Counted from the first letter of the stretch, positions 1 to 29,004 are shown. The stretch is 33,970 nt of DNA from Candidatus Kuenenbacteria bacterium HGW-Kuenenbacteria-1 (GCA_002839745.1 PGYQ01000004.1:1-33970); one strand, 5' to 3'. The notes: a model not told the origin generated them from the letters alone. Translations and numbers: made by a program.

Positions 1-2
1 AA

Positions 3-2741
3 GATATAACAATAAAAAGCAATGTTATTATTCAGAAAAAACTTACTGTTCAAGGCGGAGCAACTTCTCAATTTAATGGCGCGTTAAAGGTTTTAGGGGG
101 TGGAGATGAAAAAGGTTTAATGATTGGTGATGCTACTTTGAAGTTAACAACAGATCAAAATTTAATTTATGGAGTAATAAAAGCCGATTCTGTTGGCAAT
201 TTAATGCTTTTACAAACAGGTGCTGGGAATGATAAATTTAAAGTTGATAAAGATGGAAATGTTACAGCGACAAAATTTAATGGAAATTTAACTGGAAATG
301 TTACTGGATCTTTAACTGGCAATGCAACTTCAGCCACAACCGCTACTTCTGCAACAACCGCTACTTCTGCAACAACCGCGACAAATTTAGTAGGCGCGCA
401 ATGGAGTATTCCTTATCAAAGCACTACAAATATTACGGCTATGTTGGCATCAGTAGCCGAAGATTCTGGCAAATTTTTAAAATCCAATGGAGCAGGAGCT
501 CCTACTTGGGCGACTGTTGCAGCTGGATCTCAAACTCCTTGGACAAGTGATATTAACGCCAATAGTAAAAATCTTTCTAATGTAGGAAACATTAGCTTGC
601 CGGATACAACAGCAACAACGGGTATAATTAAAGTTGGCACAGATAGATTTATTCATAATTTTGGGACTAATAATGTTTTTGTGGGTAGAAATGCTGGAAG
701 TTTGGAAATAGAAGAAGGGACTGGAAAGAATAATTCTGCATTAGGCAGTTCAGCTCTTTCTTCGCTCGTTAACGGCGATAATAATATTGCTATTGGAACT
801 TTAGCTCTTCAAAATAATGCATTTGGCAATAATAATATTGCAATAGGAGTTAAAGCTCTTGATGGTTATTCTTCTGATGGTGGTGATAATGTTGCTATAG
901 GAAATTCAGCTCTTTTAAAAGCTGAAAGTGGTAACTTTAATACTGTTCTTGGATCTAATGCAGGACATTTTAATTATACGGGAAGTAATAATGTTCTTTT
1001 GGGTTATCGAGCGGGATATGGAGCAGCAAATAGAAATTTATCAAATAATGTTCTTATTGGATATAAAGCTGGTTATACTATTAATAGTGGAGACTACGGT
1101 ACAGGAGGCATTGGCAATATAATTATTGGATATAATCAGGATGTGCCAACCCCAATAACTAGTTATCATCTTAATATTGGCGGGTTAATTTATGGAGATT
1201 TACTTAAGGGCAATGTCGGGATTGGGACAACAGGACCACTCGCGTCTCTTGAAGTAAAGCGAAATACACCGGATACAAATTTTGCCGCATGGATTGAGGG
1301 AACTGATGACAAAAATTATGGGTTGGGAGTGAATATTTTAAATACAACATCAAACAAAGCCATCGCTGATTTTAGATCTGGCAATGTTTCAAAACTTTTC
1401 ATCAGAGCGGATGGTAATGTCGGCATTGGAACAACAACTCCGAGAGCGTTTTTTGAAGTAAAACAAAATATAGCGAATATGAGTTTTACCGCATGGATTG
1501 AGGGGGCTAATGACTACAATGATGGGTTAGGAGTGAGTATTTTAAATACAGCATCAAACAAAGTCATTGCTGATTTTAGTTCTGGTAATGTTTCAAAACT
1601 TTACATCAGAGCAGATGGTAATGTCGGAATCGGGACAAGAGTACTGAGGAGAAAATTAGATATAAATGGAGATTTAACTACAAATGGTAATCTTTTAACT
1701 CAAATAGAAGGTGGTGCGTATTTTGGTAAAGTTGGGATTAAAGAAAATCAATGGGGTTTGAGTAATTACGGCAATACTTGGACAGCAACAGGTTCAGCAA
1801 AAAAGAATTGGTGGGCAGTTGCTATGTCTTCTGACGGCAAAATCCAGACAGCTGTTATTAATGGTAGTGACTACATCTATGTTTCTTCTAACTATGGTAA
1901 CACTTGGACAGCAACAGGTTCAGCAAAGTATTGGTTAGGAATTGCTATGTCTTCTGACGGCAAAATCCAGACAGCTGTTGCTTATGGTGGCTACATCTAT
2001 GTTTCTTCTGACCATGGCAACACTTGGACAGCAACAGGTTCAGAAATGAATTGGTTAGGAATTGCTATGTCTTCTGACGGCAAAATCCAGACAGCTGTTA
2101 CTTATGGTGACCACATCTATGTTTCTTCTAACTATGGTAACACTTGGAAAGCAACAGGTTTAGCAATGAATTGGCAAGGAGTTGCTATGTCTTCTGACGG
2201 CAAAATCCAGACAGCTGTTGCTACTGTTTGGGGCGGAAGACAAATCTATGTTTCTTCTAACTATGGCAACTCTTGGACAGCAACAGGTTCAGTAATGAAT
2301 TGGCAAGGAGTTGCTATGTCTTCTGACGGCAAAATCCAGACAGCTGTTACTTATGGTGGCTACATCTATGTTTCTTCTGACCATGGCAACACTTGGACAG
2401 CAACAGGTTCAGTAGTAATGAATTGGCGGGCAGTTGCTATGTCTTCTGACGGCAAAATCCAGACAGCTGTTGCTTGTGATGGTGGCCAAATCTATGTTTC
2501 ATATGCAAATTCGTTTATAAATGGTAATGTTGGGATAGGGACAACAAATCCTCAAAGTGCTTTACATATTCCGGATGGTAAATATATTCAAATTGAAGAT
2601 AATAATACAGGAACTCCACCTGTGGCAGATTGTGATAATAATAACGAAAGAGGAAGAATAAGTATTGACACAACTAATAATCGTCTCTATATTTGTAATG
2701 GAGCGTCAAGGGGTTGGGATTATATTCCTTTAACAAATTAA
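3..2741 (+). CDS. 5'-truncated giant repeat surface/adhesin-like protein (tail-fibre-like modules plus six Asp-box/BNR-like repeats)
   Basis: The frame is open from position 3, with no stop upstream of ATG 120, so the N-terminus lies outside the window. It contains (SATTAT)x3 from an 18-nt tandem repeat (330-383) and NxxAxG-type repeats like trimeric-adhesin or tail-fibre heads. It also has four GNVGIGTT motifs, a duplicated ~70-aa module, and six ~40-aa units carrying SxxxGxTW Asp-box signatures. Confidence 0.8.
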   Translation, partial: DITIKSNVIIQKKLTVQGGATSQFNGALKVLGGGDEKGLMIGDATLKLTTDQNLIYGVIKADSVGNLMLLQTGAGNDKFKVDKDGNVTATKFNGNLTGNVTGSLTGNATSATTATSATTATSATTATNLVGAQWSIPYQSTTNITAMLASVAEDSGKFLKSNGAGAPTWATVAAGSQTPWTSDINANSKNLSNVGNISLPDTTATTGIIKVGTDRFIHNFGTNNVFVGRNAGSLEIEEGTGKNNSALGSSALSSLVNGDNNIAIGTLALQNNAFGNNNIAIGVKALDGYSSDGGDNVAIGNSALLKAESGNFNTVLGSNAGHFNYTGSNNVLLGYRAGYGAANRNLSNNVLIGYKAGYTINSGDYGTGGIGNIIIGYNQDVPTPITSYHLNIGGLIYGDLLKGNVGIGTTGPLASLEVKRNTPDTNFAAWIEGTDDKNYGLGVNILNTTSNKAIADFRSGNVSKLFIRADGNVGIGTTTPRAFFEVKQNIANMSFTAWIEGANDYNDGLGVSILNTASNKVIADFSSGNVSKLYIRADGNVGIGTRVLRRKLDINGDLTTNGNLLTQIEGGAYFGKVGIKENQWGLSNYGNTWTATGSAKKNWWAVAMSSDGKIQTAVINGSDYIYVSSNYGNTWTATGSAKYWLGIAMSSDGKIQTAVAYGGYIYVSSDHGNTWTATGSEMNWLGIAMSSDGKIQTAVTYGDHIYVSSNYGNTWKATGLAMNWQGVAMSSDGKIQTAVATVWGGRQIYVSSNYGNSWTATGSVMNWQGVAMSSDGKIQTAVTYGGYIYVSSDHGNTWTATGSVVMNWRAVAMSSDGKIQTAVACDGGQIYVSYANSFINGNVGIGTTNPQSALHIPDGKYIQIEDNNTGTPPVADCDNNNERGRISIDTTNNRLYICNGASRGWDYIPLTN
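1761..2500 (+). repeat. Six tandem, near-identical 120-129 nt coding repeats (Asp-box/BNR-like blades)
   Basis: The 36-mer gctatgtcttctgacggcaaaatccagacagctgtt recurs at 1821, 1944, 2064, 2184, 2313 and 2436. The flanking tatgtttcttct...ggcaacacttggacagcaacaggttca is also conserved. Confidence 0.9.
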
Positions 2742-2821
2742 TCACAAATTTATTTTTTTTGGGCATTTAGTTTTTTCCCCTATCCTTGGCATTTGTTATT
2801 TTTATTGGCTAATTTAAACAA

Positions 2822-2858
2822 AAAAAAATAGCTATTTTACTATAATAGCTATTTTTTT
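2822..2858 (+). terminator. A-tract / hairpin / T-tract (bidirectional-type intrinsic terminator) after the surface protein gene
   Basis: In aaaaaaatagctatt-ttactat-aatagctattttttt, the palindromic atagctat arms (2828-2835 and 2845-2852) are extended by A/T runs. Confidence 0.5.
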
Positions 2859-2920
2859 ATTACAATTTTTTTATTTCTAATATGTTAACACAATGAAAAA
2901 AAGTGAGACCCTACATAAAA

Positions 2921-2949
2921 TTGTGTCTGGCATAGTTAAAATGTATAAT
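2921..2949 (+). promoter_or_regulatory. Putative transposase promoter inside the IS left end (TTGTGT-17-TATAAT)
   Basis: TTGTGT at 2921-2926, a 17-nt spacer, TATAAT at 2944-2949, and the ATG at 2979. Confidence 0.4.
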
Positions 2950-2978
2950 TAATTTTTATTAATTTAATTTTAAAAACT

Positions 2979-4178
2979 ATGCAAGACAAAAATAATAAGA
3001 CAACAAAAATTTTAGAGAAAAGTATTAAAAGTTTAAGAGAAAATTTAGATTCATTATCAATGGATAAGTTTATTGCAACAACTATTGAATCTTTAATGAG
3101 TATAGAAAGAGATGAATATTTGGAAAAAATTAATGATCCAAAAACAGATAAAGGAAATGGATATTATGGAAGAGCTATGAAAAGTCTTTCAAGCAATTCT
3201 CTTGTTGTAAACATTCCAAGAACAAGAGCAGGTTTGTTTTCTCCAGCAACATTAGAATTGTTAAAAATAAATAGAGGAAAGGTCGATGAAATTGCTTTGT
3301 CTTTATATAAAAGAGGAATGACCTCGCAAGACATTCAATCATTTCTTGATGAAGTTTTTGAAGAAGGAATGTCTCCAGCTAAAATATCAAATTTAGCGGA
3401 AACGTTTAATAAGTTTAGAGTTGCTTGGCAAAACGCAAAACTTGAAAAACATTATAAAGTTGTTTTTGGTGATGTTATTTTTATAACAGTAAGAAGAGAT
3501 AATGAATATACAAAAGAAGGCGCTTTTGTGGCTTATGGCGTAAGAGAAGATAATCGTAGAGAATTGCTTATTTTAGAGCTTAATCCGACTGAAGGAGCTA
3601 TATTTTGGGGTGAATTATTAAAAGATTTAAAAGAAAAAAGAGGTGTCGAAAAAATAGATTTATTTGTTGCTGATGGGATTCAAGGATTAGAGGATGAAGT
3701 ATTAAAATATTTTCCTGAAGCAGAATTTCAAAAATGTGTTGTTCATAAAATGAGAAATATTTTAAACAAAACTAGACCAAAAGAAAAAACAGAAATAGCA
3801 GAAGATTTAAAAGAAGTTTTTGATAATTTTGATAAAGATGCTACTATAAAGAAAGCTTTGGAAAAAGTAAATAATTTTTTGAAAAAATGGAAAAATAAAT
3901 ATCCAAATTTTAAAAATTATTTTAAAGAAGGAAACATAGAATATTATTTTACTTACATAAAATTTAATCCTGTTGTAAGAAGAATGATTTACACGACAAA
4001 TAGTCTTGAAAATTTAAACAGACAAATTAGAAAAACAACAAAAAATAAATTATCATTTGAATCACCTGAAAGACTGCTTGATTATTTATTTATGATTATT
4101 AAAGAATTTGAAGAAAAAAATTATATGAAATATCCAGTTTCAAATTATAAATATTTTAAGAAAATTACAAAAAGATAA
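2979..4178 (+). CDS. IS256/Mutator-family transposase
   Basis: DGIQGLEDEVLKYFPEAEFQKCVVHKMRNIL and YTTNSLENLNRQIRKTTK match the conserved DDE-region motifs of IS256 transposases (D-G-x-x-G-L, CxVH, YTTN-x-x-E-x-x-N). The 399-aa length is typical. Confidence 0.9.
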   Translation: MQDKNNKTTKILEKSIKSLRENLDSLSMDKFIATTIESLMSIERDEYLEKINDPKTDKGNGYYGRAMKSLSSNSLVVNIPRTRAGLFSPATLELLKINRGKVDEIALSLYKRGMTSQDIQSFLDEVFEEGMSPAKISNLAETFNKFRVAWQNAKLEKHYKVVFGDVIFITVRRDNEYTKEGAFVAYGVREDNRRELLILELNPTEGAIFWGELLKDLKEKRGVEKIDLFVADGIQGLEDEVLKYFPEAEFQKCVVHKMRNILNKTRPKEKTEIAEDLKEVFDNFDKDATIKKALEKVNNFLKKWKNKYPNFKNYFKEGNIEYYFTYIKFNPVVRRMIYTTNSLENLNRQIRKTTKNKLSFESPERLLDYLFMIIKEFEEKNYMKYPVSNYKYFKKITKR

Positions 4179-4398
4179 AAAAGCTAGACACACTTTTATG
4201 AACGGTCCCAAAAGTTTTTTGAAAATAGGAGGGAAAAATGTGAAATAATAATAATATTACAAGCGCAACACTTTGTCAATGGTTATTTAACTTAAAAGAA
4301 AAGGAATCACCATTCATCCTCATTTTTTTTGTTATCTCTTAATAAAGATGGAGGTTGTGTAAAAATTTTTGACAAGTATTTAAAATAAGACTACTAAC

Positions 4399-4443
4399 TT
4401 ATTTAGTCCATGGAACAGTCTATGGACTATTGGCTAAAATTAG
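4399..4443 (+). repeat. R2 hairpin module, copy 1 (A part only)
   Basis: The sequence is ttatttagtccatggaacagtctatggactattggctaaaattag. It contains the inverted repeat agtccat(g/a)g-N6-ctatggact. Confidence 0.85.
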
Positions 4444-4482
4444 TCCAAAAGCAATCTCTTTGTTCTTGTATTTGTATTTTTA

Positions 4483-4620
4483 TTATTTTAGTCCATAGAA
4501 CAGTCTATGGACTATTGGCTAAAATTAGATAAAATTGGCTAAAATTAGATAAAATAATTTGGGTTTAATGGTTAAAAATGGTTGCTATAATAGTTAAATT
4601 TGTTTTATTATTAGAATAAA
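4483..4620 (+). repeat. R2 module, copy 2 (A+B, with an internal 20-nt tandem duplication)
   Basis: The same hairpin with a perfect 9-bp stem, then ataaaattggctaaaattag duplicated. The shared B part follows: ataaaataatttgggtttaatggttaaaaatggttgctataatagttaaatttgtttta. Confidence 0.85.
4583..4591 (+). promoter_or_regulatory. Extended -10 promoter element TGcTATAAT inside R2 (second copy at 4862-4870)
   Basis: An exact TGnTATAAT match on the + strand in both long R2 copies. Confidence 0.4.
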
Positions 4621-4658
4621 TATTAAATTTATTATTAAAACATTTTAACTATTATGAC

Positions 4659-4710
4659 AAAATTAATTATACATTTTTACTATGCTAGACACAATTTTAT
4701 GTAGGGTCTC
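4659..4710 (-). repeat. Solo 52-bp inverted copy of the IS256 left end
   Basis: The reverse complement of 2905-2956 matches 4659-4710 at 50/52. It retains the TTGTGT-17-TATAAT promoter, pointing leftward. Similarity stops exactly at 52 nt. Confidence 0.85.
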
Positions 4711-4723
4711 AAAATATATAACT

Positions 4724-4754
4724 AAAACCGGGTTTTAATTTAAGACCCGGTTTT
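4724..4754 (+). terminator. Bidirectional-type hairpin terminator
   Basis: aaaaccgggt-tttaatttaag-acccggtttt: a 10-bp stem with A/T-run flanks. Confidence 0.45.
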
Positions 4755-4782
4755 AAAAATGATCCAAATTTATTTTAGAAAT

Positions 4783-4900
4783 TTATTTAGTCCATGGAAC
4801 AGTCTATGGACTATTGGCTAAAATTAGATAAAATAATTTGGGTTTAATGGTTAAAAATGGTTGCTATAATAGTTAAATTTGTTTTAAGATTAGAATAAAA
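4783..4900 (+). repeat. R2 module, copy 3 (A+B)
   Basis: Near-identical to 4483-4620, but without the internal 20-nt duplication. Confidence 0.85.
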
Positions 4901-4912
4901 TAATATAATTTG

Positions 4913-4959
4913 GATTATTTTTTTTCTTTTTTTCATCCCCACCGTGTTAACACAGTGGG
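4913..4959 (+). repeat. R3 boundary module, copy a (T-rich tract plus palindromic hairpin)
   Basis: The sequence is gattattttttttctttttttcatccccaccgtgttaacacagtggg. The hairpin is ccac-c-gtgttaacac-a-gtgg. Confidence 0.85.
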
Positions 4960-5036
4960 GGGTGGAGTTATGGGTTGGGGTGTTGTGAAAAAAATTAATT
5001 TTAATTTAATCACTAACCCCAACCCTATTTTTTCCC

Positions 5037-5780
5037 CTATTCTATCCTCCTTGGGGAGGCTGGGTCGGTGCAGTTAATTATTGCATCAACCATTCTTTCC
5101 CCCCCTCTCTGAGAGGTAAATAAGTACGAGATCTTAACGATCCCCCCTTTTACCTCAAGAATACGACAATTATTAGGGGCTGTCCAGTCGCCCCCATTAA
5201 CTTCAAAAAACGAAAACTGCATGGTGGTCAGATCCACTATGCAGAGGCCGGCTTTTTCACCGGCCTTACCTCCCGTTCCTACTCCTATGTAGGCACGGGT
5301 TCCATCCACCACGATGGAAAAGCCAACTCCAGGAATAGAGAGCTGGCCTGTCAGTAACGGAGTATTAGGGTCGCTGACGTCGACCCGCAACAACAGATTA
5401 TTGCCCTTTGTTAAAAGGGCACCCCCATCTGCTGTCGCAATATAGGCTATACTGCCTATATTAATCGCAATTTGGGGTATTTGATAAGAGGGTACCCCAA
5501 CCCTTGCCAAGTCGAAACTTGGCTCTCTTGGCTCAGCATAAGCGACCCATTCGTCGCTTATCCTTGCCTTCGGTACCACCACCACTGACGGTGGAGGCAA
5601 CATACCGTGGTCAACTACCACGGTAGTTCCATCCGGGAGTATCAAGGGAGCGAGTTCTGGCGGAACTCGCAATTCCTTTGCTTGCTGGTAGATGGCCCCA
5701 GCAAGACTTTTCGCATTGGCTGGGGCAATGGCCCCAGCCAACAACGCTACTGTTACTACGCTAACTAATAACTTTCTCAT
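5037..5780 (-). CDS. Secreted protein of foreign composition, possibly with LVIVD-like beta-propeller repeats
   Basis: N-terminal signal peptide MRKLLVSVVTVALLAGAIAPANA. GGAG sits 9 nt upstream of the ATG. About 48% GC (29/60 at 5041-5100). The segments ...LLLRVDVSDPNTP... and ...GLCIVDLTT... resemble LVIVD repeats; that family call is weak. Confidence 0.7.
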   Translation of the reverse strand: MRKLLVSVVTVALLAGAIAPANAKSLAGAIYQQAKELRVPPELAPLILPDGTTVVVDHGMLPPPSVVVVPKARISDEWVAYAEPREPSFDLARVGVPSYQIPQIAINIGSIAYIATADGGALLTKGNNLLLRVDVSDPNTPLLTGQLSIPGVGFSIVVDGTRAYIGVGTGGKAGEKAGLCIVDLTTMQFSFFEVNGGDWTAPNNCRILEVKGGIVKISYLFTSQRGGERMVDAIINCTDPASPRRIE

Positions 5781-5814
5781 TTTTTTTGTCTCCTTTTAAT
5801 TTAAATTTTTTGGG

Positions 5815-6291
5815 CTAGAAGAAAAAAAATAGCCCAAAATTTAGAATTTTTTCTTCGGTTTTTTTTTCATCTCCCACGCCAGAGAGATTTAAAAAAACCT
5901 TGCCATAATCTATGTTTAAAAAAATTTTTTTGGTGAATTTGAGCTCAATTCCTCCAAAAAAATTTTTTGAATCTGTAGATCCACTTATTTTGTCGCCTTC
6001 ATCATTGACGACTGTGAATCTACCTTTACCTACTCCCATCCCGGAGTAAAAAATTACCCTCCAGGCGGGATTAAGGCGGTAGATACCTCGGATGGTACCT
6101 ACTAGAACTCCAGGAACAGCGCTTCCTTGGAGTTCTACGCCAAGATGATCAAGAATGATCACCTTGGCATTAAGTGAGTCGAGTCCAAACCCGACTCCAC
6201 ACATAATATTATCATCGGAAGTGGCATAGGCTGGCGCAATTACCAGCATCATCAATGCCATTACTACTACGCTAACTAATAACTTTTTCAT
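5815..6291 (-). CDS. Small secreted protein, possibly beta-barrel-like with a C-terminal Phe
   Basis: Signal peptide MKKLLVSVVVMALMMLVIAPAYA. AGGAGG sits 8 nt upstream of the ATG. Alternating G/hydrophobic pattern, ending in ...NFGLFFFF. The 5' two-thirds are GC-rich and the 3' third is AT-rich. Confidence 0.6.
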   Translation of the reverse strand: MKKLLVSVVVMALMMLVIAPAYATSDDNIMCGVGFGLDSLNAKVIILDHLGVELQGSAVPGVLVGTIRGIYRLNPAWRVIFYSGMGVGKGRFTVVNDEGDKISGSTDSKNFFGGIELKFTKKIFLNIDYGKVFLNLSGVGDEKKTEEKILNFGLFFFF

Positions 6292-6426
6292 TTTTTTATC
6301 CTCCTAAGACTTGAATATACCGCTATAAATCTAGCGGTATTGTGTTTGAAAAGAAATTTTTTTTATGCCATGTTTAGGGGTCGTATCCCCAAACATTAAA
6401 TTCTTATTTTCAAACAAAATACCACT

Positions 6427-6466
6427 CTTTTGTCAATCTATTTATTCACTTTTGTGTTACCATATT
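6427..6466 (-). repeat. R4 boundary/promoter module, copy a
   Basis: cttttgtcaatctatttattcacttttgtgttaccatatt is 38/40 identical to 7647-7686. It carries TTGACA on the minus strand (6431-6436). Confidence 0.85.
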
Positions 6467-6490
6467 TATGGGTGTTGAAAATTTATAGTT

Positions 6491-6535
6491 GATTATTTTT
6501 TTCTTTTTTCGTCCCCACCGTGTTAACACAGTGGG
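6491..6535 (+). repeat. R3 boundary module, copy b
   Basis: gattatttttttcttttttcgtccccaccgtgttaacacagtggg has the same orientation as 4913-4959. It differs only in T-run lengths and one a/g change. Confidence 0.85.
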
Positions 6536-6706
6536 AATTTAAAATTTATAATTTTTTAAATTATTAAAGGATGAATTTTCTCTTTATTAAATAATTAGAA
6601 AAGGTTTCTGATTATTTAGCAATGAAGAAAAAAGAAAAAAAATAACCTCTATTCGCATAATAAAATAGGCAAAATTTGTCTGACAAATTTTACACTTGAA
6701 ATATTT

Positions 6707-6841
6707 TGTCATTCCCGCCCTTGATGAAACTCGTGGCAGGTTCCAAAGGGAATCCAGAGAAGACTGTCATCCTCGCGAATGCGGGGATCCAGATTTAATT
6801 AACTTATGAAACCTGGATTCCCGTTGTCACGGGAATGACAG
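6707..6841. repeat. GC-rich REP/MITE-like hairpin repeats (GTCATTCCCG...CGGGAATGAC type)
   Basis: Three units: 6707-6757, 6764-6792 (ctgtcatcctcgcgaatgcggggatccag) and the inverted 6812-6841 (cctggattcccgttgtcacgggaatgacag). The last two form a ~78-nt inverted pair. Confidence 0.7.
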
Positions 6842-7077
6842 AAAGAGAATAATCATTCAAATTCCGATACAATAAAATAAGCCTTTTCACACATTTAAGT
6901 CTCCCTGATAGAGTTTGCCCCGTTGAATAACTGGGAAAAATTTAGAGGGTTTCTGTTTTTAAAATCCCCCAACCCCCTTTATCAAGGGGGCTAATCAATT
7001 CTGTCTCCCTGATAAGGGGGATTAAGGGGGTTTCTTTTTCTTTGTAATATTCAAATTCCGATGCAATAAAAATTATT

Positions 7078-7325
7078 TTATTGATAATAATCGTTGATAT
7101 CAATAATTTCAATTGTGCGTTTTTCTCGAAAAATAAAAATTACCCTATACTTATGATTAATTCTGAAACTCCAGATTTTCATTTGTTTTGGTTCAAGAAG
7201 TTCTGTTTGCAAACTTGGATAAAAAGGATTTTCTTCAAAAAATTTCTTTTGTTTTTCAAATTTTTTTTAAGATTTTTCTTTTTAAGATATTTTTCAATAT
7301 CTGGATGAATAGGGAAAATTTTCAT
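7078..7325 (-). pseudogene. RelE/ParE-superfamily toxin, frameshifted in an A8 homopolymer
   Basis: ATG 7325 opens a 48-codon frame. Adding one A to the A8 run (plus-strand T8 at 7261-7268) gives an 82-aa ORF ending at 7078. Its C-terminal half is NPFYPSLQTELLEPKQMKIWSFRINHKYRVIFIFREKRTIEIIDINDYYQ, typical of RelE/YafQ-like toxins. Confidence 0.7.
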
Positions 7326-7337
7326 TATTTTTTAAAA

Positions 7338-7565
7338 TTATATAAAATAAGATGAGCGTTTTAATCCTTTTTCTAAACTTTTTAAAAAATCATCATTATA
7401 TTTATTTGTTTCTTTAAAAGAATTTATAATTTTTTTTGTATTTCGGATAGGAGGAGAAGCAAAAATATCCTCTTTTACTACTTGTTTAAAATATTCAAAT
7501 CGAAAAAAATTTTCAATTAATTTTTGATATTCTTTTTTCGGAATAGTAATAGTTTGAGTGTTCAT
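7338..7565 (-). CDS. Putative antitoxin of the RelE-like toxin
   Basis: A 75-aa ORF 12 nt upstream of the toxin start on the same strand, the usual antitoxin-first arrangement. No family was recognised. Confidence 0.5.
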   Translation of the reverse strand: MNTQTITIPKKEYQKLIENFFRFEYFKQVVKEDIFASPPIRNTKKIINSFKETNKYNDDFLKSLEKGLKRSSYFI

Positions 7566-7646
7566 AGAATTTTATTTTTAAAATATTTTTATTTTTAGAT
7601 ATAATTTTTAAAAAACTTATTATCATATTTTTAACACAAAATTATG

Positions 7647-7686
7647 CTTTTGTCAATCTATTTATTCACTTTTATGTTAACATATT
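7647..7686 (-). repeat. R4 boundary/promoter module, copy b (TTGACA-17-TGtTAAAAA on the minus strand)
   Basis: Sequence cttttgtcaatctatttattcacttttatgttaacatatt. On the minus strand, TTGACA (7651-7656) is followed by a 17-nt spacer ending in TGT, then TAAAAA (7628-7633). This lies upstream of the antitoxin start at 7565. Confidence 0.6.
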
Positions 7687-25691: not shown

Positions 25692-25706
25692 AAAAGATTA
25701 AAAAAA

Positions 25707-25737
25707 ATGTTGTTTTATAATATTTATAAAACAACAT
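25707..25737. terminator. Bidirectional intrinsic terminator between the convergent M23 and lemA genes
   Basis: atgttgttttat-aatattt-ataaaacaacat, flanked by an A-run and a T-run. Confidence 0.6.
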
Positions 25738-25763
25738 TTTTTAAAAATAAAAATTAACTTTTA

Positions 25764-28868: not shown

Positions 28869-29004
28869 AATTAATGCTGTTTTAAAATCTGTAGGCAAGA
28901 AAGCATAAAGCTTAATCAAGGGATTAAATTGGTTAATTCTCCTTTTCCTTTTCAATCCTTTGATTTTTTTCTTTTGTCTACAGATTTTAGATCGGCATTT
29001 TTTT
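28869..29004 (+). ncRNA. Candidate structured small RNA (unassigned family)
   Basis: A + strand promoter: TTGACA (28834-28839), a 17-nt spacer ending TGC, then TAAGTT (28857-28862). Nested stems 28883-28900/28971-28989 and 28914-28925/28954-28965 include G-T pairs that work only on the + strand. A T7 run lies at 28998-29004. Confidence 0.3.

Follow-up and report, generated by a model that had tools for sequence, protein, structure and literature searches.

A hairpin-tiled operon for two secreted proteins in a Patescibacteria contig, with a structure-constrained transcript as a possible source of its atypical composition

Locus, host and base composition

We analyzed a 33,970-nt stretch of DNA deposited for Candidatus Kuenenbacteria bacterium HGW-Kuenenbacteria-1 (GCA_002839745.1, PGYQ01000004.1:1-33970; hereafter the window), and in particular a two-gene operon in it, the coding sequences of which are tiled with short hairpins. 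The window is a chromosomal piece with a GC content of 27.8%, and contains dnaA, yidC, pilMNO, dnaE, a PPDK-type gene (pyruvate phosphate dikinase / phosphoenolpyruvate synthase family) and ATP synthase genes. The closest relatives of its DnaA in GTDB genomes, with 48-52% identity, belong to Magasanikbacteria, Doudnabacteria and metagenome-assembled genomes labelled 'Patescibacteria group'. Because these best DnaA matches are Patescibacteria, the host is, on sequence grounds, a bacterium of the Patescibacteria (candidate phyla radiation, CPR) without a close sequenced representative. A CPR host had also been considered in an earlier reading of the bare sequence by a model (the original prediction).

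The operon consists of two open reading frames (ORFs) on the minus strand, encoding first a protein of 158 aa (gene 1, 5815-6291) and then one of 247 aa (gene 2, 5037-5780). The N-terminus of each protein is a classical Sec signal peptide with AxA at the cleavage site, MKKLLVSVVVMALMMLVIAPAYA in gene 1, cleaved before TS, and MRKLLVSVVTVALLAGAIAPANA in gene 2, cleaved before KS. Each gene has a canonical Shine–Dalgarno (SD) site, AGGAGG at 6300-6305, 8 nt before the ATG at 6291, and (A)GGAG at 5790-5794, 9 nt before the ATG at 5780, and anything resembling an SD site was found in just 3 of the 25 other genes. The original prediction had described precisely this arrangement, a two-gene operon for secreted proteins with genuine SD sites in a host whose genes mostly lack them. 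The operon sits in a variable island of surface genes, which includes type IV pilus genes, an insertion sequence (IS) of the IS256 family (2904-4711), and a gene for a BNR-repeat adhesin (120-2741). The BNR gene is convergent with the operon, and the IS256-family element lies between the two.

The GC content of 500-nt windows reaches a maximum of 0.528 (5251-5750), compared with a background of 0.272 ± 0.049 (z = 5.3). The segment is therefore the compositional outlier that had been predicted, and the earlier hand counts of G+C were exact (29/60 at 5041-5100 and 33/60 at 6061-6120). GC content and GC content at third codon positions (GC3) are 0.50 and 0.49 for the 247-aa gene, and 0.39 and 0.36 for the 158-aa gene, compared with a GC3 of 0.08-0.23 in the other genes of the window and of ~0.13 in core genes. 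The G-ending codons of the operon (AAG, CAG, CTG, GGG, CCG) are typical for a genome of intermediate GC content. The adjacent BNR gene is also moderately GC-elevated (0.38). GC-normalized tetranucleotide usage, the second compositional check that had been proposed, does not separate the segment at a length of 1.45 kb (r = 0.35, compared with 0.40 ± 0.11 for background windows). The two proteins are rich in Gly, Ala, Val and Pro, as predicted (combined fractions of 0.38 and 0.30, compared with 0.09-0.26 elsewhere), but the contrast with every other protein of the window fails for the BNR gene, which reaches 0.30.

An orthologous operon in a second lineage

Word-index searches of 5.8 billion clustered proteins matched neither protein to anything but itself. 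The only full-length relative of the 247-aa protein is a 232-aa protein (P0005), with 40-44% identity depending on the alignment. It is encoded on nine short contigs from the records Hain_H41 and Hain_H43, which, by their names, we take to be Hainich groundwater wells. The P0005 gene is always preceded by a gene for a 145-aa protein (P0152), 34-36% identical to the 158-aa protein, and is always followed, convergently, by a BNR/Asp-box repeat gene ~50% identical to that at 120-2741 of the window. The Hainich and window pairs are thus syntenic, with about 35-43% protein identity. The Hainich pair also has AGGAGG sites and a raised GC content (0.34 and 0.42, compared with 0.23-0.27 in the flanks), with a GC3 of 0.30 and 0.40, compared with 0.21 in the BNR gene. 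Among the Hainich strains the operon is 100% identical, whereas the adjacent BNR gene varies (91.6% identity).

Word-index, profile and exhaustive HMMER searches for further members of the family returned only the window and Hainich lineages, or nothing. No further member was found in GTDB genomes, JGI metagenomes, IMG/VR (searched by protein and by DNA pattern), plasmids or phages. Two orthologous operons in all are thus known. The best explanation for the locus is a genuine, lineage-restricted operon for two Sec-secreted, all-beta envelope proteins in a Patescibacteria (CPR) host.

The signal peptides of the window pair are identical at 15 of 23 residues, and the segments encoding them at 26 of the first 27 nt. 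A 22-nt identical run (5754-5775 and 6265-6286) lies within an 82-nt repeat of 77% identity, which spans the SD and signal-peptide regions. In the Hainich orthologue of the small protein, the signal peptide is a different one (7 of 20 residues identical). Because this signal differs while those of the window pair nearly match, the sequences point to gene conversion within the operon, in the window lineage, as the origin of the shared signal peptide. The shared peptide and the 22-nt run had both been noticed in the original prediction, and exchange of a signal peptide, one of the two causes that it offered, is borne out by the comparison.

Hairpin tiling of the coding sequences

The 247-aa gene was predicted to fold with a free energy of −335 kcal/mol, compared with −242 ± 7 kcal/mol for its dinucleotide shuffles. 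Across two sets of runs, the z-scores of the sense strands relative to dinucleotide shuffles were −12.6 to −12.9 (247-aa gene), −10.1 to −10.9 (158-aa gene), −21.5 to −25.8 (232-aa gene) and −13.7 (145-aa gene). The antisense strands of the four genes gave −9.3 to −18.9. The excess stability vanished upon shuffling of synonymous codons, which preserves the protein and the gene's own codon usage (z = −13.5, −9.0, −21.5 and −9.4 for the 247-, 158-, 232- and 145-aa genes, respectively).

The predicted fold strings together short local hairpins, most of them perfect, which often abut one another. Local helices of at least 5 bp number 23 in the 247-aa gene, 16 in the 158-aa gene, 24 in the 232-aa gene and 13 in the 145-aa gene, and the entire transcription unit of the window contains about 40 short stable hairpins. 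Stems have median lengths of 8-10 bp (range 6-17 bp) and loops of 6-11 nt (range 3-15 nt), and >92% of the stem pairs are Watson–Crick pairs.

This structure is specific to the operon. In 240-nt scans outside 4900-6450, the mean z was −0.47 ± 1.65 for the first 22 kb and −0.69 ± 2.0 for the remainder. Besides 4321-6840, values below −4 were limited to the tRNA and to a small number of windows between genes or at gene ends. The structured zone of the Hainich locus (nt 121-1920) comprises the operon and its flanks, and ends at the convergent BNR gene. Control genes gave z-scores of +0.4 to −2.1 (pilM, dnaA, atpD, the BNR gene, the transposase gene, and two ordinary genes of 59-68% GC for LVIVD-repeat proteins, to which the 247-aa protein is remotely related). 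Perfect GC-containing hairpins occur at 6.4 and 9.4 per kb in the two operons, compared with 0.11 per kb in the rest of the window. Their maximum per 1250 nt was 4 across 530 windows from 80 bacterial dnaA loci, compared with 8 and 12 in the operons. An independent inverted-repeat tool detected 10 and 19 pairs in the operons, and 3-4 in controls.

The structured sequences are protein-coding. Identity between the orthologues by codon position is 0.52/0.63/0.35 and 0.55/0.66/0.39, and the annotated frame alone is open, with 4-21 stops in each of the other five frames. This codon periodicity and the single open frame rule out a structured non-coding RNA in place of the genes. Hairpins as a general property of LVIVD coding sequences were likewise ruled out, because the LVIVD controls gave z = −0.3 to −1.9. 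The in-frame antisense phase is used by 316 of the 636 stem pairs, and conserved stretches of the proteins, for example TVVVDHG and ISYLFTSQ, are encoded within hairpins. A repeat scan inside the coding sequences revealed the shared signal-peptide segment only, and each hairpin is unique. In searches against Rfam, the tRNA alone reached the gathering score, and the operon region gave only chance-level, miRNA-like matches.

Conservation of hairpin positions

In the large gene, 11 of 15 terminal hairpins have an orthologue apex within 6 alignment columns, compared with 3.7 ± 1.7 at random, and none of 5000 shifts reached 11. In the small gene, the apexes of 5 of 9 hairpins are conserved (P = 0.03). 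Most of the stems at conserved positions differ in sequence, for example GTTGGCTGGGGC/GCCCCAGCCAAT and TTTGCGTTTGCCGT/ACGGCAAACGCAAA. At exact alignment columns, 43 and 22 base pairs are common to the orthologues, compared with at most 12 in shifted controls, and the excess consists of unchanged pairs.

The sense strand folds better than the antisense strand in all four genes. G·U pairs make up 50 of 636 pairs on the sense strand and 18 of 528 on the antisense strand, and internal mismatches are G·T in 11 cases and A·C in 3 (P = 0.057). The SD and start regions are more open than the coding sequences, with a probability of being unpaired, P(unpaired), of 0.45-0.60, compared with 0.30-0.35. We infer that selection acts on the folded transcript of the operon.

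Integrity of the assembly

The original prediction had named an assembly chimera as the alternative to a genuine locus, that is, DNA of a GC-richer organism joined to a Patescibacteria contig. The sharp composition boundaries do coincide with repeats (4911-4959 and 6408-6535), and several assemblies break near 6380-6460. However, four further contigs, each from a different source (ENA ERZ27239245, JGI 3300029891, NCBI GCA_017973855.1 and Logan SRR3546457), carry the gene for the 247-aa protein without a single base change and match the window at 100% identity. Two of these cover 1-6426 and the two shorter ones cover 2309-6382 and 4870-6357, and all four cross the left boundary. A second NCBI contig (JAEMOG010001084.1) leads from 6328 through the repeats and AT-rich DNA into pilM and then dnaA with 99.9% identity, and a matching architecture is present on the nine Hainich contigs. 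These independent contigs cross the composition boundaries and refute a chimera, to which we assign practically no probability.

The assemblies differ only by an indel of 143 nt, located between 6426 and 6427: three others contain the additional 143 nt at this point and then rejoin the window sequence. The extra nucleotides complete a longer copy of a repeat at 7606-7686, and this shared repeat, together with the indel, accounts for the assembly breaks nearby.

The transcription unit and its flanking repeats

On the minus strand, the operon is preceded by a repeat (D9, 6408-6466) that carries a TTGACA and is, judged from the consensus only, the putative promoter of the operon. The second copy of this repeat, at 7606-7686, is upstream of ORFs for a 75-aa and a HigB-like protein. 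The 5' untranslated region (UTR; 6292-6407, minus strand) is structured (z = −4.4), with two hairpins followed by the open AGGAGG, and P(unpaired) for the SD and start region of gene 1 is 0.55, compared with 0.33 for its coding sequence. The minus-strand spacer between the genes (5781-5814) is AT-rich and host-like, and contains the (A)GGAG of gene 2, with a P(unpaired) of 0.60. The 3' UTR (4960-5036, minus strand) contains a long GC-rich hairpin, GGGTTGGGGT...ACCCCAACCC, and the fold of 4905-5040 gave z = −5.9 for the minus strand and −4.4 for the plus strand. The motif YCCAAACATW, which occurs three times in the 3.5-kb Hainich locus (0.10 expected), occurs once in the window (6388-6397), within the hairpin of the 5' UTR.

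The unit is bracketed by direct repeats. Copy 1 (4911-4959) is located 78-126 nt downstream of the operon stop codon. Copy 2 (6488-6535) is located 197-244 nt upstream of the first ATG, and consists of a T-rich tract and the palindrome CCCCACCGTGTTAACACAGTGGG; its 40-nt core is 93% identical to 4920-4959. The 22-nt palindrome has exactly two occurrences in the window, compared with 0 expected, and folds to a hairpin of 10-11 bp on either strand. The Hainich operon (locus L005) is bracketed by a 15-nt direct repeat, AAACCTCCAAACATT, at 107-122 and 1846-1861. A weak (63%), AT-rich third copy of the window repeat, sharing the central palindrome TGTTAACA, is present at 2858-2897, downstream of the BNR gene and immediately to the left of the IS element.

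The repeats bear on the possibility that the unit is a non-autonomous mobile cassette, which exists partly as single-stranded DNA during uptake by the type IV pilus and competence system or during recombination at folded sites. Its tiling would then protect or prime the single strand, and the direct repeats would be recombination sites. Consistent with this, such repeats bracket the operon at similar distances in both lineages (48 nt in the window and 15 nt in L005), both strands are strongly structured, the locus is a variable island beside pilMNO, and in both lineages contigs break off immediately upstream of the operon. However, neither the unit nor its immediate surroundings encode a recombinase, relaxase or integron integrase, both lineages hold it at an equivalent place, and neither an empty site, a circular junction nor a second copy was seen, nor any copy in viral contigs, plasmids or phages. 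We consider such a cassette very unlikely. Two specific forms of mobile unit were rejected. The flanking palindrome GTTAACA has a C where the GTTRRRY R' core of an integron attC site needs a purine, and no integrase is encoded among the genes of the window. A dif/Xer module was rejected because the locus lacks a dif-like site and lies ~6 kb away from dnaA.

A long shot among the ideas considered is that the unit functions or travels as a single-stranded nucleic acid in a role other than that of an ordinary cytoplasmic mRNA, either as a recombinase-less cassette, bracketed by the direct repeats, that passes between cells through the type IV pilus and competence system as folded, nuclease-resistant single-stranded DNA, or as a stabilized transcript handed to a diderm host. 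In the latter version, insertion of the barrel-like protein could be carried out by the beta-barrel assembly machinery (BAM) of the diderm on which the episymbiont lives. If true, either version would represent a mobile or exported genetic unit of a new kind.

The encoded proteins

A phmmer search with the 247-aa protein against 1.84 billion representative sequences gave 4971 matches at E ≤ 1e-3. The top matches each had 7-23 stretches aligned to query residues ~100-171. Of the seven matches that were checked, six carry 6-14 LVIVD repeats (PF08309), the exception being the full-length relative P0005. The LVIVD-like repeats noted in the original prediction are therefore borne out by remote homology, although the 247-aa protein does not reach the PF08309 gathering score of 20.2 bits (10.4 bits, E = 0.43, residues 127-146), and P0005 has no PF08309 match. 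The N-terminal part of the 247-aa protein is novel, and residues ~100-247 make up about three beta-propeller blades of LVIVD-like type. An AlphaFold2 model of the protein alone has 12 strands in the blade region, at low confidence (predicted local distance difference test, pLDDT, 46). The 247-aa protein is thus predicted to be a three-blade fragment of an LVIVD-type propeller, and the three-blade units might close into a propeller as an oligomer. Its C-terminal ~150 residues resemble the blades of LVIVD surface proteins, but there are just about three blades in the 224-residue mature protein, whereas ordinary LVIVD genes encode 600-6000 aa and show no excess of hairpins.

The sole Pfam match of the 158-aa protein is the outer-membrane barrel family OMP_b-brl (PF13505; E = 1.8e-5, 25.4 bits), below the gathering score of 28.7. 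This family is also the sole Pfam match of the orthologue (16.4 bits, E = 0.011). In NCBIfam, the N-terminal part of the 158-aa protein matched an outer-membrane barrel family at 19.5 bits, compared with a cut-off of 135. AlphaFold2 applied to the mature protein and one orthologue (2-sequence alignment) gave a pLDDT of 32. The beta-amphipathicity of the small protein was not above that of shuffled sequences (z = 0.6 and 1.4), and a profile search of PDB sequences with either protein family gave no match. The C-terminus of the 158-aa protein is ...NFGLFFFF, and that of the orthologue is ...WGFIWYFK, with a terminal Lys.

The small protein thus weakly resembles an outer-membrane beta-barrel. The earlier description of it as barrel-like has a faint counterpart in the PF13505 signal, with sub-threshold scores and non-significant amphipathicity. 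Like the small eight-stranded barrels of PF13505, gene 1 encodes a signal peptide and a Gly- and aromatic-rich, all-beta mature product of ~135 residues ending in ...GLFFFF. Unlike them, both the protein and its orthologue score below the curated cut-off, the orthologue ends in ...WYFK, and the phylum of the host is thought to be without an outer membrane and BAM. Patescibacteria have been proposed to lack an outer membrane, and the diderm-type genes that occur in them sporadically have been ascribed to transfer (PMC12102498). Even a weak outer-membrane barrel signal is notable in a phylum thought to be monoderm.

Sources of the atypical composition

The original prediction interpreted the operon as recently acquired, possibly from a host or partner organism of higher GC content. 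In its fullest form, this interpretation holds that the pair was transferred recently from a higher-GC organism, possibly a diderm host or partner, that its composition has not yet been ameliorated, and that the hairpins are incidental. Several features fit: GC3 is 0.49 and 0.36, compared with ~0.13 in core genes, with G-ending codons like those of a mid-GC genome, and the SD sites are unlike those of host genes. The only Pfam match of the small protein is an outer-membrane barrel family, in a phylum thought to lack the outer membrane (PMC12102498). The features of a genomic island are likewise present, namely the GC outlier (z = 5.3), flanking direct repeats of 40-48 nt, and the neighbouring IS256-family element (2904-4711).

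However, no donor was found. There was no donor-like or close homologue in the 5.8 billion clustered proteins or the 1.84 billion representatives, nor in GTDB, JGI, IMG/VR, plasmids or phages, and a co-occurring partner should have been sampled by the same metagenomes. Rather than being absent from related genomes, the unit is present in synteny in the only related lineage known. There, in another AT-rich genome, the pair is diverged, occupies the equivalent position and has an atypical composition as well. With no donor, and with the unit old enough to be held in place by two lineages, recent donation by a co-occurring GC-rich partner is difficult to defend. Furthermore, the spacer between the genes is AT-rich, and Hainich strains have 100% identical copies of the operon but differ in the neighbouring BNR gene. 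Transfer alone also fails to explain z-scores of −10 to −26, because ordinary GC-rich LVIVD genes have no hairpin excess. We consider recent transfer improbable.

The hairpins, their specificity to the operon, their encoding through synonymous codons and the conservation of their positions are observed. We hypothesize that the 'foreign' composition arises mainly as a side product of a constraint that acts on the whole transcription unit at the nucleic acid level, that is, that a hairpin-tiled, structure-constrained transcript, and not recent transfer, is its source; we regard the chances of this reading as evenly balanced. The hairpins would be placed through the choice and order of synonymous codons, as a beads-on-a-string array. 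Because stable stems in a genome of 27% GC need G:C pairs, GC content and GC3 would be raised, giving non-host codon usage. Because the transcript is otherwise folded, it would need open and strong SD sites, which the unstructured AU-rich leaders of the host do not. Selection would most likely have favoured a message, for two surface proteins made in abundance, that is compact, resistant to nucleases, long-lived or paced in its translation. Short template-switch mutations (PMC8794818) probably gave rise to the hairpins, which selection would then have retained.

In all four genes, GC3 is higher at paired than at unpaired third positions: 0.55 and 0.37 (247 aa), 0.40 and 0.26 (158 aa), 0.47 and 0.24 (232 aa), and 0.32 and 0.27 (145 aa). 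The unpaired values of the Hainich genes are near the 0.21 of the neighbouring BNR gene. The G:C stems thus account for part of the GC excess and of the odd codon usage.

Several points weigh against a constraint on the transcript. The unpaired GC3 of the window genes (0.37 and 0.26) is still above the ~0.13 of the host, so the hairpins are not the whole cause of the anomaly and an old foreign origin of the operon is possible. GC is no more concentrated in the stems than in folds of shuffled sequences. There is no excess of two-sided compensatory changes at fixed columns (26, compared with 21-28 in slid controls), and the conservation is therefore one of hairpin position. Protein constraints on palindrome-encodable sites could partly explain even this conservation. 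The G·U bias of the sense strand is modest, and G+T is slightly enriched on that strand. Because >92% of the pairs are Watson–Crick, the antisense strand and double-stranded cruciforms are almost as structured. The benefit at the RNA level is one that we infer, and the comparison is limited to two orthologous operons.

Some of these points would also fit a process at the DNA level without function, in which template switching or palindrome 'conversion' perfects inverted repeats, the hairpins are tolerated or selfish, and the GC content is a side effect. The stems are mostly perfect Watson–Crick palindromes with both strands strongly structured, and their sequences turn over between the orthologues without an excess of compensatory pairs at fixed columns. 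The neighbouring non-coding DNA (4321-4920 and 6481-6840) is also hairpin-dense, and both precedents and a mechanism have been described (PMC6649704, PMC8794818). Such a process gives no reason why the hairpins are confined to one operon, when the remaining window has 0.11 of them per kb, or why the structured zone of the orthologous locus stops sharply at the convergent BNR gene. It also leaves the conserved apexes (11/15 and 5/9), the sense-strand advantage and the open SD and start regions unexplained. We consider it unlikely. If the cause is mutational, the 'coding palindromes' of hairworm mitochondria would extend to bacteria.

Because direct repeats bracket the unit in both lineages and the locus is a variable surface-gene island, the unit may have arrived long ago as a cassette, and not by recent acquisition.

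Islands of high GC content within AT-rich genomes are routinely taken to be horizontally transferred. The operon is a caution for such composition-based calls and offers a different cause, the selection or generation of dense secondary structure in a coding sequence, and such structure can raise GC content, distort codon usage and call for strong ribosome-binding sites. If selection does act on the mRNA, the operon would be, to our knowledge, the first example from bacteria of an entire message maintained in folded form by selection over a deep divergence, and would offer a way into the study of mRNA turnover and translation in uncultured Patescibacteria that grow slowly. The design principle of such a 'superfolder' message is now engineered into therapeutic mRNAs.

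Comparison with known systems

We know of no bacterial operon, literature searches included, described as having its entire coding sequence tiled by positionally conserved hairpins. The closest analogues appear to be the coding palindromes of Nematomorpha mitochondria, PARCELs (DUF285/TIGR02167) and the palindromic elements of Rickettsia. The Rickettsia palindromic elements, and insertions resembling MITEs (miniature inverted-repeat transposable elements), consist of dispersed copies of repeat families in otherwise normal genes. They are similar to the operon in that GC-richer palindromic sequence is translated within proteins of an AT-rich, reduced genome. In the operon, by contrast, no hairpin is a copy of another, and the hairpins cover conserved protein motifs.

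In Nematomorpha mitochondria, the function of the coding palindromes is unknown and template switching has been proposed as their source; the in-frame antisense phase is favoured in them as well (PMC6649704). As in the operon, perfect inverted repeats lie in functional genes with both arms translated, the degeneracy of the code is used to optimize pairing, and the repeats turn over between related species. The Nematomorpha palindromes differ in being up to 284 bp long and genome-wide, whereas the stems of the operon are 6-17 bp long and tile it nearly end to end. The present case is bacterial and confined to one operon within 34 kb, its hairpin positions are largely conserved, and it has a raised GC content and strong SD sites in an AT-rich, SD-poor genome.

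PARCELs are likewise dyad-symmetric DNA encoding surface- or membrane-targeted proteins in monoderm bacteria with small genomes, with links to mobile elements and an atypical origin (PMC2996958). However, they are tandem repeats of 25 residues, defined by a hidden Markov model, with imperfect dyad symmetry. The operon proteins did not match the DUF285/TIGR02167 models in Pfam or NCBIfam at E ≤ 10, and a repeat scan found no tandem repeats inside the operon genes.

Neighbouring elements

The element at 2904-4711 is an IS256/Mutator-family insertion sequence with 53-nt terminal inverted repeats that are 96% complementary. It encodes a transposase of 399 aa (2979-4178; Pfam Transposase_mut, E = 1e-72). 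Its composition is host-like (GC3 0.13), a target-site duplication is not obvious, and the element is missing from the orthologous Hainich locus. About 150 nt of its 3' non-coding part (4367-4620) recur beyond its right end (4751-4899) with 82-98% identity, and this repeat holds three copies of the hairpin TAGTCCATGGAACAGTCTATGGACTA. The region 4321-4920 is also strongly structured (z = −5 to −6.6).

The large BNR/Asp-box repeat protein (120-2741 in the window, 1931-3523 in L005) has N-terminal repeats that are adhesin-like or tail-fibre-like. Besides its moderately raised GC content, its gene in the window has a GC3 of 0.23 and an enrichment of C-ending codons, and it folds normally (z = +0.4).

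Between the operon and a toxin–antitoxin remnant, the region 6700-7040 contains GC-richer, MITE-like palindromic elements (GTCATTCCCGC ... GGGAATGAC, with GGGGG/CCCCC stems). Two stretches of ~146 nt within it gave fold z-scores of −2.6 and −3.8. The remnant includes a truncated HigB/RelE-like toxin ORF of 44 aa (7078-7212, minus strand; Pfam E = 8.5e-7) and, upstream of it, a 75-aa ORF (7338-7565, minus strand) with no family match. The two ORFs are probably a decayed type II toxin–antitoxin pair.

Two further intergenic hairpins are very strong. One, with a perfect, AT-rich stem of 19 bp, is located between convergent genes at 25702-25742, and the other, an extended stem-loop of ~110 nt, is located upstream of atpD, at about 28876-28985 (z = −5.5 to −11). 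Neither matches an Rfam family, and both are probably terminators or regulatory elements.

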